Positions 4,508-64,000 of a stretch of DNA of 64,000 bases are shown piece after piece. The DNA lies in NCBI GenBank assembly GCA_947599825.1, contig CANQFS010000001.1, positions 20,452-84,451 on the forward strand. The letters run 5' to 3'. The stretch's first letter is position 1. Each line of letters starts with the position of its first letter. This DNA comes from an uncultured Clostridia bacterium (lineage in GTDB: Bacteria; Bacillota; Clostridia; TANB77; CAG-508). The notes beneath the pieces are model-generated. The model did not search any database. It had not been told where the DNA came from and saw only the letters and a list, made by a program, of their open reading frames with translations. The position numbers and the translations under genes were made by a program.

Positions 4508-4536
4508 GTACCAAAAAGAAACGTCCCTAATGGTAC
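4508..4536 (-). repeat. GGTAC/GGGAC-box element, half copy, in the groES-groEL spacer
   Basis: gtaccaaaaagaaacgtccctaatggtac begins 1 nt after the groES stop codon and matches the GGGACGTTTC half of the family consensus. Confidence 0.8.
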
Positions 4537-4537
4537 A

Positions 4538-4807
4538 TTATTGTATTACTGCTAATATGTCGCTTTGACTTACAATTACTAAATCTTCGCCTTCATATTT
4601 TACTTCTGTTCCAGCATATTTGCTTACTACTACTTTATCTCCTTTTTTTACTTCCATTTTTACTTTTTCTGTTCCTGGCCCTACTTCTAGTACCTCAGCA
4701 AATTGTGGTTTTTCTTTGCTACTTCCTGCTAAGATAATTCCACTTTTTGTTGTCTCCTCGTTTTCTTTCATTTTAATCACTACTCTGTCTGCTAATGGTT
4801 TTAACAT
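4538..4807 (-). CDS. groES: Co-chaperonin GroES
   Basis: 89 aa starting [26 protein letters not shown], immediately upstream of groEL. Confidence 0.97.
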
Positions 4808-4883
4808 TTTACATTACCTCCTTATTTTTTAGAAAAACTATTATCATTAAATAGTTAGTCTTGATTGATTTTTTGTTATATAA

Positions 4884-4910
4884 TTAGCAGTCTTTATTCG
4901 AGACTGCTAA
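4884..4910. promoter_or_regulatory. CIRCE operator (HrcA binding site) upstream of groES
   Basis: ttagcagtc-tttattcga-gactgctaa fits TTAGCACTC-N9-GAGTGCTAA with symmetric substitutions. Confidence 0.85.
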
Positions 4911-5034
4911 TAATGTATACCCATTTCTAAAAAATGTCAATACTATTTTGTAAAATTCACATAGTTTTCACAAAATAGCTCTTTCTATTTTTATGCTTTC
5001 TATTTTGATTTCATACTTATTATTTTTTCAATCT

Positions 5035-5060
5035 AAAAAGAGGCCAATTGACCTCTTTTT
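5035..5060 (-). terminator. Rho-independent terminator after ORF 5067..5774
   Basis: aaaaagaggccaattgacctcttttt is a GC-centred stem flanked by A and T runs. Confidence 0.7.
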
Positions 5061-60194: not shown

Positions 60195-60298
60195 TGGGGA
60201 CGTTTCCTAAAGGTATATCTGTCCCTTTTGGTGCATAATCGAATATAAAATTACCATTAGGGACAGATGTACCTTTAGGAAACGTCCCCGATGGTAAC
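60188..60298. repeat. REPIN-like doublet: two inverted full GGGAC-box copies separated by 16 bp
   Basis: 60188-60234 is ttaccattggggacgtttcctaaaggtatatctgtcccttttggtgc. 60251-60298 is ttaccattagggacagatgtacctttaggaaacgtccccgatggtaac. The doublet spans the entire radA-disA spacer. Confidence 0.85.
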
Positions 60299-61663
60299 TA
60301 ATGAAGTATTTTTAATGCTTCACTTATATTTCTAACGCCTATTATATCTAATTTATAACTATCTTTCAATAGTTTTTTGTTATTTTCTGGAATAATACAT
60401 TTTTTGAAGCCTAATTTTTCCACTTCTTTTAATCTTTTTTCTATCATATTAACTGCTCGTACTTCGCCAGTTAAGCCGTACTTCACCAATTGCTACTACG
60501 TCTGTTGGAATGCTGATGTTTTTAAAACTAGAACTTACAGCTAAAATAATTCCTAAATCGATGGCAGGCTCTGCTATACGAATTCCACTTACTACGTTTA
60601 AATATACATCTTGTGAGCCTAAATTTAAATTGGCTCTTTTTTCTAAAACTGCCATTAACACAGTAAGTCTATTGTAATCAATTCCATTTGCTGTTCTTCT
60701 TGGAAGTCCAAATGTAGTTGGCGTGGTTAATGCTTGAAGTTCTATTAAGAGTGGTCTCGTTCCTTCCATACTTGCTACAATTACGCTTCCGAGAAGGGTT
60801 GTCTTCTCGTTCAGAAATTAAAATAGAAGATGGATTTGTTATTTCTACCATTCCATTATTTTGCATTTCAAACATTCCTACTTCGTTTGTAGAGCCAAAA
60901 CGATTTTTCACTCCTCTTAAAATACGATAAGAAAAATAGCGTTCTCCTTCTAAGTATAAAACTGTATCTACCATATGTTCTAGCACTCTTGGTCCTGCAA
61001 TGTTTCCCTCTTTTGTAACATGACCTATAATAATTGTTGTAATATTTTGCCCTTTACAAATTTTCATTACTCTTGCAGTAATTTCACGCACTTGGCTTAC
61101 TGTACCTGCTGCAGAGGTAATTTCATCACTATACATCGTTTGAATTGAATCTATAATTACTAACTTAGGATTTAGCTCTTGAATATTTTCTGCAATAATG
61201 TCAATATCAGTTTCACCTAAAAATAAAATATCTTCGTTTTTTATATTTAAACGGTCTGCACGAATTTTAATTTGCTCTGCAGATTCTTCCCCTGAAACGT
61301 ATAAAACCTTTCCTTCACCTTGCATTTTGTTGCAAATTTGAAGAATAAGCGTAGATTTTCCGTATGCCTGGTTCTCCACCAAGTAATACTAATGAACCTT
61401 TTACGATTCCACCACCTAATACTCTATCTAATTCTCCAACACCGTGTAGAAATGCGAACTGCTTCTTTCCCCTCTACACTATTTAATGAAGTTGGCTTTG
61501 CTGTTCTTGTTTTTTTATTTGTAAGAAAAGCACCATCTTTATCCTTTACTACTTTTTCTTCATAAAAACTATTCCATTCATTACAAGCTGGGCATTTTCC
61601 AAGCCACTTAGGCGATTCATATCCACAGCTATTACATACAAAAACTGTCTTTGCTTTTGCCAT
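60298..61663 (-). pseudogene. radA: DNA repair protein RadA/Sms interrupted four times, each by one extra C before a Gly codon
   Basis: All domains are present: C4 zinc finger [18 protein letters not shown], Walker A, KNRFG and a Lon-like C-terminus. The gene is split into track ORFs 61424..61663, 60678..61382, 60449..60769 and 60298..60489. Removing plus-strand G at 61444, 61362, 60791 and 60478 gives one continuous RadA. Confidence 0.9.
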
Positions 61664-62486
61664 ATTTCTTTGGTTCCATTGGGGACGTTTCTTTTTGGTA
61701 CATCTGTCCCTTTTGGTACATCTCCTTTCCTATTTTTTCTATTAATTTTCTATTCATACCTAATATTCTAGCAATTTGTATTTTCTTAATGCCTTCTATT
61801 TGAATAAATTTTTTTATTATTTCATACTTCTTATCTTTATCGTAATTTTGAATTCTTATTAAATTCTCTTCTTTTGCAATTTTTTTCATGCACTTAATTG
61901 CTTCTTCGTCTTCTATTTTGCTTATCATTTCATAATGATTTCCAAAATCTTGATTTTTGTTATAATTATTATGAAAAATTTTAAAATTTGAAATATCATT
62001 ATTAAATAAATTCATAATAAAATCTTTGTCAATTATTCTTTCTTCATTTTGAACATATTCATAATAACTAGTCCAAGAATAATGACCAGTAATACCTGCA
62101 TTTTCTGGATTTTTATGAATATATCTTACCACATTTTTTAAATACGATTCTTCTTCAATATTTTTACTTTTGAATCGATTTTCAAATAAATGACCTACTC
62201 TTTCATATTTTTGATTAAAATAATAGGAATATCTTATATTTAAGCTTTGCATAATAGTAGATAGATTTTCCGTTGTATCATGAATAATAAAATGTGCATG
62301 ATTTGGCATTAGTGCATAAGCATATAATTCATATTGGTATAATTCTTTTGTTCTTTTTAATTCTTTTAGAAATTTTCTAAAATCTTGGTTATCTAAGAAG
62401 ATATCTTGCCTATTGATACCTCTTATAATAACATGGTAAACATTTGTGTTTGATTTTGTTCTTTGGGTTCTTGAAATAGTGAACAA
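61632..62486 (-). CDS. IS200-like / REP-associated tyrosine transposase (RAYT, COG1943-type) with C-terminal HTH
   Basis: [17 protein letters not shown] motif [20 protein letters not shown] and the catalytic Tyr context [13 protein letters not shown]. The C-terminal tail [22 protein letters not shown] is HTH-like. The start is uncertain (TTG directly after aggagg). The last ~30 codons run through the repeat and the radA start. Confidence 0.85.
61676..61719 (+). repeat. Full GGGAC-box element between the RAYT-like gene and radA
   Basis: ccattggggacgtttctttttggtacatctgtcccttttggtac lies 13 nt upstream of the radA ATG and is read through by the 3' end of the transposase ORF. Confidence 0.85.
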
Positions 62487-62665
62487 CCTCCTAACTATAT
62501 TATTTTTTTGATTTTGCCCCTATTATTTTATTCCCCCTAAAACTAATAAAAATATAGCACATTTTTATGTATATTGCTATATTTTTATGAAAATTTTTTA
62601 AATTTTTATGGATTTTTCTTTATTTTCTCGTTTTTTATACATTTTTCTACTTTTTTCTTAGTAAT

Positions 62666-62695
62666 GTACCTTTAGGAAACGTCCCCAAAGGTACC
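62666..62695 (-). repeat. Half GGGAC-box element upstream of the RAYT-like gene, overlapping the GH15 3' end
   Basis: gtacctttaggaaacgtccccaaaggtac is in inverted orientation relative to 61676-61719. It supplies the last 7 codons and the stop of the GH15 gene. Confidence 0.8.
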
Positions 62696-64000
62696 TAGCT
62701 GTGACAAAGCAATAATATACATAGCATGCGACCAACCTAAGCCAATTACCCAGTTAGATTGCATGGTTTCATTGTCTATTTGTTCTGCAAGAAAGCCATG
62801 TTTAGTTGCTGTTTTGCTAATAAATTCAATTTGGTTTGTGGCTTCTTCTTGTTTTCCTATTTTCATATTATATAATGCCAACCATAATGTTGCAATTGGC
62901 CATGGATTATTTCCGCCTAAATAGCTATCATTTTCAAATCTTAAATAGCCACCGGTATAAGTTCTTAAAGTCATATTTATTTTTTCAATAGTATTTTTTA
63001 CTTCTCTTTGCTCTGCATCTAACATAGAAAATGGTACTACAGTTCCTAATAAACTAATATCCATAATGTTATCCTTGTTGTTTCTCTTTAGAGTTTTACT
63101 TTGCTCATCATAGAAATTTTTCAAGCAATAATCTTTTATTTGCTTTGCTTTTTCTTCTAATTCTTCTATTTCTTTTGTTTCGTTTAATTCCTGTTTTATG
63201 GCTATCATTGCCTTTAGCGCTGCATATATTGCACTTAATGAATATAAATGAACTCCTTCATGCATTTCCCATAAGTCATAACTTTCCTTTTCTGTCATAG
63301 GTTCTTTTTCTAATGTACCAAAAGGGACAGATTTACCAAAAGGAAACGTCCCCAATGGTAACCCTAATGGTACTTTTTGGCACATTGGATAGACTTGTTT
63401 TAGAAATTCTTTGTCTTTGGTTATTTTGTAATGTTCGTATATGCCATATATAATGCTGGCTGTTTCATCTATTTGATAGCCCCAACATGGTGCTAATCTT
63501 CCGTCTGTGTAGAAGCGTTGCTCCCACATTCCGTTTTTGCTTTGTGTTTTTTTGCAGAAGTTTGTATAGAATTTTGTCGTTTGCTCTGTCATGTTTAATA
63601 TGTCTAGTGCTTTTGTTACAAAGACTGCATCTCTTGGCCAACAATATGAATAACGTCCACATTTACTTCGTTCTTCATCTACTTCTATTGCTGCTGATAT
63701 GCCACCAGTTTCGGTATTTGAAAGAAGTGGAAATAGCAAAATACTTCTTACATAGATTTTTTTTATGCTTTCGTATTTTTCGTATGCAATTTTGTCTATT
63801 TCATTTTGTTCTTTTTCTATTGATTTATTTACCGCATCCTTTATTTCATCTTTGCCTGTTAGTTTTCTTTGCCACTCCTCTTTTTTACTTAGAATTTTTA
63901 GTCCGTCATGCTCTTTTACATAGTTATTCCAATATTTTTCTACTTTCTTTTGCTCTTTTGTGGTATCTATGCTTTTTATTTTTTCTACGTCTTCTATTAT
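62672..64000 (-). CDS. Glycoside hydrolase family 15 (glucoamylase-like) protein, 5' end beyond window
   Basis: CWPRDA, YDLWEMHEG, GGYLRFENDSYLGGNPWPIATLW and LGWSHAMYI motifs. The frame stays open upstream of the track Met (63739) to the window end. Confidence 0.85.
   Translation of the reverse strand: MIEDVEKIKSIDTTKEQKKVEKYWNNYVKEHDGLKILSKKEEWQRKLTGKDEIKDAVNKSIEKEQNEIDKIAYEKYESIKKIYVRSILLFPLLSNTETGGISAAIEVDEERSKCGRYSYCWPRDAVFVTKALDILNMTEQTTKFYTNFCKKTQSKNGMWEQRFYTDGRLAPCWGYQIDETASIIYGIYEHYKITKDKEFLKQVYPMCQKVPLGLPLGTFPFGKSVPFGTLEKEPMTEKESYDLWEMHEGVHLYSLSAIYAALKAMIAIKQELNETKEIEELEEKAKQIKDYCLKNFYDEQSKTLKRNNKDNIMDISLLGTVVPFSMLDAEQREVKNTIEKINMTLRTYTGGYLRFENDSYLGGNNPWPIATLWLALYNMKIGKQEEATNQIEFISKTATKHGFLAEQIDNETMQSNWVIGLGWSHAMYIIALSQLGTFGDVS
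63315..63373 (-). repeat. Long-form GGGAC-box element inserted in frame inside the GH15 coding sequence
   Basis: gtaccaaaagggacagatttaccaaaaggaaacgtccccaatggtaaccctaatggtac is translated as ...KVPLGLPLGTFPFGKSVPFGTLE... just upstream of the conserved DLWE region. Confidence 0.85.

Follow-up and report, generated by a model that had tools for sequence, protein, structure and literature searches.

A REP/REPIN-like repeat family and its probable RAYT-type transposase partner in an uncultured gut Clostridia bacterium

Repetitive extragenic palindromic (REP) sequences, the REPINs formed by inverted REP doublets, and the REP-associated tyrosine transposases (RAYTs) that accompany them have been studied almost only in Proteobacteria, and both their role in the host and their persistence are still debated. 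Here we analyse a dense family of short palindromic repeats, and a RAYT-type transposase gene lying among them, in 64,000 nucleotides of DNA from an uncultured Clostridia bacterium (assembly GCA_947599825.1, contig CANQFS010000001.1, positions 20,452 to 84,451 of the forward strand); this whole stretch is called the window below, and all coordinates without a label refer to it. We consider it highly probable that the repeats are a REP/REPIN-like, non-autonomous family partnered with the RAYT encoded at 61632-62486, an enzyme that would copy and remove repeat units in trans. The system would then be a clear REP/REPIN-RAYT case from uncultured gut Clostridia with small, A+T-rich genomes, and as such a distant point of comparison.

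In the Escherichia coli "REPtron", which consists of REP sequences or bacterial interspersed mosaic elements (BIMEs) and the transposase TnpA-REP, also called RayT or YafM (PMC3333891, PMC3479197; PDB 4ER8), short hairpins are dispersed between genes, often as inverted pairs, and a single-copy Y1 HUH transposase is flanked by repeats at a fixed chromosomal position. The window shares these features, and 4ER8 is the best structural match of its transposase. It differs in that its family has an invariant block at the hairpin apex (GGGACGTTTC), whereas the E. coli repeats carry a GTAG tag at the foot, in that its units are A+T-rich, longer and built from three boxes, and in that its enzyme carries an extra C-terminal helix-turn-helix (HTH) and resides in a Clostridia host. 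With the REPIN-RAYT systems of Pseudomonas fluorescens and relatives (PMC3116915, PMC5581495, bioRxiv 10.1101/2021.07.10.451892) the window family has in common the inverted doublets that fold together as one long hairpin, the vertical inheritance of a RAYT present once, a slow turnover with sites shared between species, and several sub-families in one genome; unlike there, single units are about as common as doublets. Abundant repeats have been linked only to RAYT groups 2 and 3, Clostridia being mentioned only for group 1 (PMC5581495). The classic REP/RAYT papers that we searched make no mention of Firmicutes or Clostridia, and our literature search found no paper tying RAYTs to abundant repeats, or describing such a system, in Clostridia.

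The repeats stand far above chance expectation. With up to three mismatches, the core GGGACGTTTCCNNNNGGTAC matches 11 times in the window, versus 0.03 matches expected from dinucleotide-preserving shuffles, and the 3' module GGTACATCTGTCCC matches seven times with up to two mismatches (0.07 expected from shuffles). Because the window has only 29.7% G+C, the G+C-containing boxes stand out. An nhmmer profile seeded with seven full copies gave 12 matches, and the 11-nt core occurs at 12 sites when no more than one mismatch is allowed; the density in the window is about one copy per 5 kb. By form, the window members comprise seven full units of 47-49 nt, two half units of 29-31 nt that are near-perfect palindromes, one GCGTCA variant, two members of a sub-family ending in GGGGACAC (type B) and one array lacking the core. 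Outside the window, a strict 25-nt pattern was found at 51 loci in five metagenome-assembled genomes (MAGs) of uncultured Clostridia from rabbit and human gut, two of which are 80-95% identical to the window. In the window and these 51 loci together, nhmmer counted 133 distinct copies, and one small MAG holds at least 56 strict-pattern copies. Rfam searches, covering the whole window at gathering threshold and the repeat-rich parts in E-value scans, returned only sub-threshold eukaryotic microRNA precursors, which are matches of generic long hairpins, and BLAST of the ~290-bp composite doublet listed below gave no match in plasmids or phages.

An earlier note on this DNA, made from the sequence alone, had listed 13 repeat loci with a consensus and had not recognised the sequence family. 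A family member is present at all 13 loci, the consensus is correct, and, as far as checked, the family is uncatalogued, with neither an Rfam family nor a plasmid or phage match. The gene names given there are right for groES, def, fmt, priA, dnaK, grpE, whiA, hemW, mutS2, dCMP deaminase, disA, radA and GH15; the label "PAP2-like" found no match in a scan against NCBIfam. The contacts with gene boundaries described in the note hold, except that the copy at 63314-63361 lies in frame inside GH15 and not at a boundary. The window copies are the following.

4508-4536, minus strand: half unit in the groES-groEL spacer, directly at the groES stop
8678-8730, minus strand: type-B variant GGAGGGACGTTTTCTTTTGTTCCATTTTGGAACACTGGGGACACCCC, touching the stop of the open reading frame (ORF) 8730-9164, upstream of fhs (formate-tetrahydrofolate ligase)
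17460-17535, no strand assigned: array of seven GTCCC/GTACC/GGGAC boxes at ~10-bp spacing, without the GGGACGTTTCC core, overlapping the def stop just upstream of the fmt start
18046-18338, no strand assigned: composite doublet of ~290 bp, filling the junction of priA stop and def start
18046-18090, plus strand: full unit, left arm of the composite
18290-18338, minus strand: full unit, right arm of the composite
29501-29550, plus strand: type-B variant GGAGGGACGTTTTCCTTTAGTTCCATTTTGGCACATAGGGGGACACCCC, flanked by the dnaK start and the grpE stop
38507-38553, minus strand: full unit overlapping the whiA stop, with the hemW start 9 nt downstream
57394-57495, plus strand: variant whose three boxes are all GCGTCA/TGACGC, with three repeats of an 18-19-nt 3' module behind them, between the convergent stops of mutS2 and the dCMP-deaminase (comEB-like) gene
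60188-60298, no strand assigned: head-to-head, REPIN-like doublet with a 16-nt spacer, filling the junction of radA stop and disA start
60188-60234, plus strand: full unit of this doublet
60251-60298, minus strand: full unit of this doublet
61673-61720, plus strand: full unit in opposite orientation to the one upstream of the RAYT gene; it lies at the 3' end of the RAYT ORF, with the radA start 10 nt downstream
62664-62695, minus strand: half unit GGTACCTTTGGGGACGTTTCCTAAAGGTACA, ~180 nt upstream of the RAYT start
63314-63361, minus strand: full unit in frame in the GH15 coding sequence (VPLGLPLGTFPFGKSVPFGT), with an extra partial box to ~63385

Judged by its boxes, all that it shares with the other copies, the array at 17460-17535 is probably a degenerate relative of the family. 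The type-B end GGGGACAC is exact at 8682-8689 (minus) and 29539-29546 (plus) and also in the RAYT flanks of L054 (sampled loci are cited by our labels, such as L054 or Lap024), whose layout is that of the copy at 29501-29550. ATTGCAAGGGACACATCTTAC at 30295-30320, flanked by the grpE start and the hrcA stop, resembles the type-B 3' end (GCAATTAGGGACACATCTTTA in L054) and is probably a decayed copy that the earlier list lacked. The 199-nt spacer of the composite doublet (18091-18289) forms an imperfect palindrome of its own and is found at no fewer than three loci (window 18091-18289, L030 4082-4277, L014 631-829), its inner part being inverted relative to the flanking units in L014; searched against Rfam, it gave no family and only generic hairpin matches.

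The minimal unit is a hairpin of ~31 nt that consists of a box, a spacer of four A or T bases (W4), GGGAC·GTTTCC, a second W4 spacer and the complementary box. Across all lineages compared, the apex GGGACGTTTC is invariant, while the outer stem varies freely and still pairs; depending on the lineage, the complementary outer boxes are GTACC/GGTAC, GTCTC/GAGAC, TGTGAA/TTCACA, GTTCCC/GGGAAC, TGACGC/GCGTCA or TGATGC/GCATCA. In the common 47-49-nt unit, ATCT-GTCCC-W4-box is added to the minimal unit and a second, longer hairpin becomes possible, and two head-to-head units yield one long REPIN-like hairpin. Folded as single-stranded DNA, a 31-nt half unit reaches -8.1 kcal/mol (z=-4.9), a 49-nt full unit with TAAT spacers -14.5 kcal/mol (z=-8.1) and the doublet at 60188-60298 -44.1 kcal/mol (z=-13). 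Among 71 distinct full units of the main family, the short and the long hairpin each show ~78% pairing, compared with 39-63% when the partners are slid. Covariation across lineages was assessed for a 14-pair hairpin with 14 31-mers spanning sub-families and lineages and 500 shuffles: 84.7% of the cells pair (67% shuffled), 36 cells are double compensatory (16 shuffled) and the covariation score is 0.465, against 0.175 for shuffled and 0.07-0.17 for slid partners, none of the 500 shuffles being as high in any of the three measures; the test is suggestive rather than unbiased because the sequences were chosen by eye. The W4 spacers showed no strict covariation (ATTA with TAAT). The invariant block of the 71 aligned copies, GGGACGTTT, lies at the apex. 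The 68 distinct clusters include 25 "+-" doublets, 29 singles and only one "-+" arrangement, so that the preferred pair faces its GTACCATTGGGGAC ends outward; the spacers within doublets measure 6-200 nt.

The earlier gene inventory had overlooked a transposase ORF between radA and GH15. This gene and its leader are as follows.

61632-62486, minus strand: RAYT-type Y1 (HUH) transposase gene, an ORF of 284 amino acids
62487-62663, minus strand: leader between the upstream REP copy and the RAYT gene, holding the palindrome AATATAGCA...TGCTATATT

The sole family match of the protein in NCBIfam is NF047646 REP_Tyr_transpos (E=1.5e-18, 67.1 bits), and in Pfam it passes the cutoff of Y1_Tnp (50.7 bits, cutoff 23). 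The catalytic domain (residues ~7-133) contains the HUH motif as NHAHF and the Tyr motif RYIHKNP (YxxxNP context) and is followed by the C-terminal HTH; H63, H65, Y122 and N126 are invariant in 46 RAYT homologs. In the AlphaFold2 model (mean pLDDT 88.8) the C-terminal half is helical, and the top PDB match of this model in Foldseek is 4er8_A (E=6e-7, target TM 0.70), the E. coli RAYT in complex with a REP hairpin, which ranks above the IS608 and ISDra2 transposases. The match came from the fold search alone, as phmmer against the PDB sequences returned nothing. HTH_23 was detected in 36 and HTH_28 in 15 of the 46 homologs, while the HTH of the window protein itself falls short of the 0.05 E-value limit of that scan. 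The gene is bracketed by inverted family copies, with the half unit 62664-62695 upstream and the full unit 61673-61720 at its 3' end. The orthologs in two related species have the same layout, one starting with ATG behind a ribosome-binding site and the other with TTG.

Two observations concern the immediate surroundings of the gene. The leader (62487-62663) is conserved above the level of coding sequence across three species, its palindrome AATATAGCA...TGCTATATT recurs in L052, L054 and L057, and it may hold a regulatory site for the RAYT. Directly downstream, radA (60304-61663, minus strand) shows at least four frame changes relative to an intact ortholog while its neighbours are intact, which represents either a pseudogene or local assembly errors; radA is likewise split in L056.

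In ~460 kb of sampled DNA, tblastn with the RAYT matched the orthologous locus alone, and no second RAYT for the type-B sub-family was found in the window or the fetched loci. Its dN/dS of 0.15-0.20 indicates purifying selection. A protein search returned 268 homologs of similar length, nearly all on one to a few contigs each, and a plasmid search gave no close homolog. Of five distant homologs inspected in their contig context, four (66%, 62%, 50% and 50% identity) lie directly upstream of radA, disA and a peptidyl-prolyl isomerase (PPIase) gene; the fifth (58% identity, L058) lies elsewhere and is the one exception among eight lineages, the RAYT being upstream of radA-disA in the seven others. 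RAYT divergence tracks that of DisA and PPIase, as would be expected if the gene is inherited vertically and keeps its locus. Inverted family copies enclose it in each of the eight lineages or species (window, L026, L025, L052/L053, L054, L056, L057 and L058), the upstream flank in L056 being a type-B-like palindrome without the core. In these flanks the apex is conserved while the RAYT diverges between lineages.

A RAYT-like enzyme with a C-terminal HTH_23/HTH_28-like domain is also characteristic of TIRtrons, with their TIRYT transposases (PMC3733652), and of Y1 subclass 2.1 (PMC6006769), and TIRtrons, like the window system, have flanking inverted repeats that belong to a family of singles, dimers and clusters. 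The TIRtron terminal inverted repeat (TIR) motif GGGGWSAS occurs exactly, as GGGGACAC, in type-B copies and the L054 flanks, whereas the main family and the window RAYT flanks carry GGGGACGT, which agrees with GGGGWSAS at 6/8 positions. Unlike TIRtron repeats, those of the window are true REP-like hairpins, and they are much above the "moderately abundant" TIR families in number. The HTH and the exact GGGGACAC, features read from the sequence, suggest a tie of the system to the TIRtron/TIRYT group and Y1 subclass 2.1. Earlier surveys reported no REP-like partners for this subclass, no REP-like sequences having been found beside subclass 2.1 genes (PMC6006769); here, an HTH-bearing RAYT subclass would be linked to an abundant hairpin family. 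IS200/IS605 elements (PDB 2VJV, 2XM3) have the same catalytic fold, recognise hairpins, as the window system would by analogy, and insert without target duplication. In contrast to them, the window RAYT is not multi-copy but single-copy, syntenic and under purifying selection, there is no tnpB-like neighbour in the gene lists around it, and its flanking hairpins are the same sequence inverted rather than distinct left and right ends. With its hairpins, high dispersed copy number, mostly intergenic positions, frequent inverted doublets and flanked single-copy RAYT, the family supports the REP/BIME/REPIN-type assignment proposed in the earlier note. We class the system as REP/REPIN-RAYT (TIRtron-like); its host lineage is undescribed, and some of its features are variant.

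Comparison of orthologous sites revealed turnover of whole units. The radA/disA junction holds a doublet in the window and in one relative and 10 unrelated bases, an empty site, in another; the whiA/hemW site, which has one unit in the window and in Lap024, holds a doublet in Lap018, and several further orthologous sites have a single unit in one species and a doublet or more in another. Between two contigs that are 99.4-99.7% identical and encode an identical RAYT protein, one whole 49-nt unit is present or absent beside a ribosome-binding site. Sites are mostly shared among the three close species, and movement is therefore slow; slow turnover has also been described for REPINs (bioRxiv 10.1101/2021.07.10.451892). 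These data bear on the idea that the repeats are ordinary miniature inverted-repeat transposable elements (MITEs), deletion derivatives of an insertion sequence whose transposase, DDE-type or other, is encoded elsewhere in the genome, the GTACC...GGTAC ends being their TIRs. Doublets and the ~290-bp composite do resemble MITEs with long terminal inverted repeats, and since our searches covered the sampled DNA, another transposase elsewhere in the genome is possible. However, no target-site duplication was seen at the filled and empty pairs compared, single 31-nt hairpins are far below MITE size, and the Y1 transposase is the only gene consistently bracketed by inverted copies. Moreover, the genes scanned against family libraries or Pfam listings, in which no systematic transposase search was run, include no transposase other than the RAYT. 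We therefore regard a MITE origin as very unlikely.

Of the 57 clusters that could be classified, 51 are intergenic, with 43 between co-directional, five between convergent and three between divergent genes (74% of the background gene pairs are co-directional); the remaining six are intragenic, a class that rests on crude gene calls and includes one verified case (GH15 in the window) and five unchecked candidates in fetched loci. Contact of units with a stop codon or a ribosome-binding site is frequent, as is to be expected with intergenic spacers of such short length. Several units, at GH15, whiA and def, provide the final codons of the gene upstream together with its stop; for GH15, whose ORF runs off the window end, the last residues and stop are encoded by the half unit 62664-62695. 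Single units occur in both orientations, with no obvious orientation bias relative to transcription. Repeats that extend ORFs, alter stops and C-termini and abut ribosome-binding sites will mislead gene callers on MAGs and can break assemblies.

That a stop codon or ribosome-binding site is only a few bases away from nearly every copy, and that most sites are conserved between species ~90% identical, would also fit elements selected by the host for structure or regulation, such as mRNA-stabilising or processing hairpins, attenuators or platforms for nucleoid proteins, with a RAYT that is incidental or no longer involved. The hairpin covariation fits selection on RNA equally well, and E. coli REPs are known to affect mRNA decay and to bind IHF and gyrase (PMC2817692, PMC3479197). 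Yet the neighbours are unrelated housekeeping genes that form no coherent regulon, single copies lie in both orientations to transcription, one copy is in frame within a gene and others rewrite C-termini, and the units are not canonical intrinsic terminators. Furthermore, inverted copies flank the RAYT in every lineage examined, with the apex kept as the RAYT diverges. Host selection would be compatible with these data as a secondary use, but it leaves the origin of the copies unexplained, and as the primary explanation we consider it unlikely. Effects of the repeats on mRNA stability, termination or translation are possible.

A narrower regulatory explanation, in which a transcription factor controlling stress and repair genes (groES, dnaK, radA, disA, mutS2) uses the repeats as operators, draws on the several heat-shock or DNA-repair genes among the neighbours and on the 9-10-bp spacing of the GGNAC boxes. 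It is hardly credible, as many copies lie downstream of stops, in a gene, or beside the unrelated fhs, def, priA, hemW and GH15, as 56 or more strict-pattern copies in one small MAG are far too many, and as a whole unit can be present or absent between near-identical strains.

Four specific candidates were tried and rejected. Of the intrinsic-terminator matches, only a marginal one overlaps a unit, and it is antisense to the genes; a consensus scan gave no support for an outward promoter TTGATA-N17-TATAAA beside the units. A CtsR or HrcA operator was dismissed as the motifs differ from the consensus sequences. A peptide repeat as the basis of the family (both strands read VPxGT) does not agree with the mostly non-coding copies and the ~10-bp period of the 17460 array; in-frame copies are tolerated because both strands read VPxGT.

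The copy in GH15 illustrates such tolerance. Including its partial box (63314-63385, minus strand), the in-frame repeat is old: it is conserved in Lap018, it has degenerated in L052, and L056 has it in duplicate (8760-8852). It adds 16-35 residues to a variable surface loop between conserved helices. Rickettsia palindromic elements are not known to have a transposase partner. Like these elements and intragenic REPs (PMC3733652), the family includes a palindromic insertion that keeps the reading frame of a gene and is tolerated where it falls in a variable loop (GH15), as well as rewritten gene ends; unlike in Rickettsia, the window has only one verified intragenic copy.

A smaller element is nested in the repeats themselves. 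In the two near-identical contigs mentioned above, the unit upstream of the RAYT carries a precise 51-nt insertion in its apex (L053 9662-9712; absent in L052 at ~9713). Elements of this kind (GCCTCTGCATA...CGTAACTCGC..., 51-55 nt) always lie within the invariant apex, between GGGACGTT and TCC, and were found elsewhere at L052 ~7111, L001 ~2518, L006 ~6086, L016 ~5544 and ~7474, and L027 ~735-833; there is none in the window. They form an internal hairpin with compensatory changes and have no Rfam match. One possibility is that the element parasitises the repeat as a second-order element; another is that it marks the cut site.

If the repeats are the RAYT's partners, as we think highly probable, a mechanism can be sketched by analogy with E. 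coli TnpA-REP and the IS200/IS605 TnpA (PMC3333891, PMC3479197). The RAYT would recognise the folded hairpin and its invariant apex on transiently single-stranded DNA, and its tyrosine would cut and rejoin the strand, leading to excision, insertion and duplication into doublets without target-site duplications; the C-terminal HTH may add contacts to double-stranded DNA at the boxes. Copies would persist where they are harmless, that is, in short co-directional spacers, at gene 3' ends whose last codons and stop are rewritten, and in one GH15 surface loop in frame. The position of the 51-nt element hints that the apex is where the DNA is opened, which is a guess; together, the conserved apex and the nested insertion offer a concrete guess at the recognition and cut site of the RAYT. 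A more far-reaching version is speculative and, in our judgement, rather doubtful: that a REPIN-RAYT partnership has been inherited vertically over long times in a Firmicute, that the position of the HTH-bearing RAYT at the head of radA-disA (down to 50% RAYT identity) ties it to recombination or replication-fork surveillance, and that the second-order 51-nt element targets the apex and thereby marks the single-strand cut site.

Several observations weigh against a RAYT-driven repeat family and temper the confidence placed in it. The association of RAYT and repeats is only positional and comparative, and we infer the mobilisation of the repeats by analogy. The "empty" alleles carry 10-12 unrelated bases in the element's place, which leaves element ends and cut sites undefined. 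As most orthologous sites are occupied in all three close species (~90% identical), much of the repeat pattern could be inherited. Copy number, the single-copy status of the RAYT and strand bias apply to the sampled parts of the genomes. As for the hairpins, covariation within the main family is modest, the 31-mers of the cross-lineage test, three poor pairers among them, were picked by eye, and the GTAG tag of E. coli and Pseudomonas REPs is absent from the family, no conserved tetranucleotide (GTAG or CGTC) being present outside the stem in the 71 aligned copies. As for the enzyme, the NCBIfam score of 67.1 lies under the curated cutoff of 80, and sequence identity to 4ER8 is only 17%. The window gene has no ATG or TTG at the position of the ortholog start, which makes its start codon doubtful, and a ~60-nt deletion removed the native stop, so that the ORF runs through the repeat into the radA start and its last ~29 codons come from the REP copy and the start of radA. 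With start and native stop lost, the RAYT may be inactive in this genome.

The window contains some further features. Long tandem repeats unrelated to the REP family lie in frame at 24214-24837 (in ORF 23755-24831, minus strand; 24/48-bp period, ~19 copies) and at 530-727 (33-bp period, five copies). A tRNA at 35144-35218 (minus strand), for which ARAGORN left the identity undetermined (anticodon shown as "cg"), adjoins a tRNA-Glu, and a 6S RNA is encoded at 44531-44721 (minus strand, 96.9 bits). Finally, the ORF 14263-15510 lies between two direct copies of ~400 bp (13275-13669 and 15628-16023), which are 85-91% identical at a distance of 2.35 kb; compared with the Lap024 ortholog (L037), each window copy aligns to the same pair of neighbouring stretches, between which there is no ~2-kb spacer.

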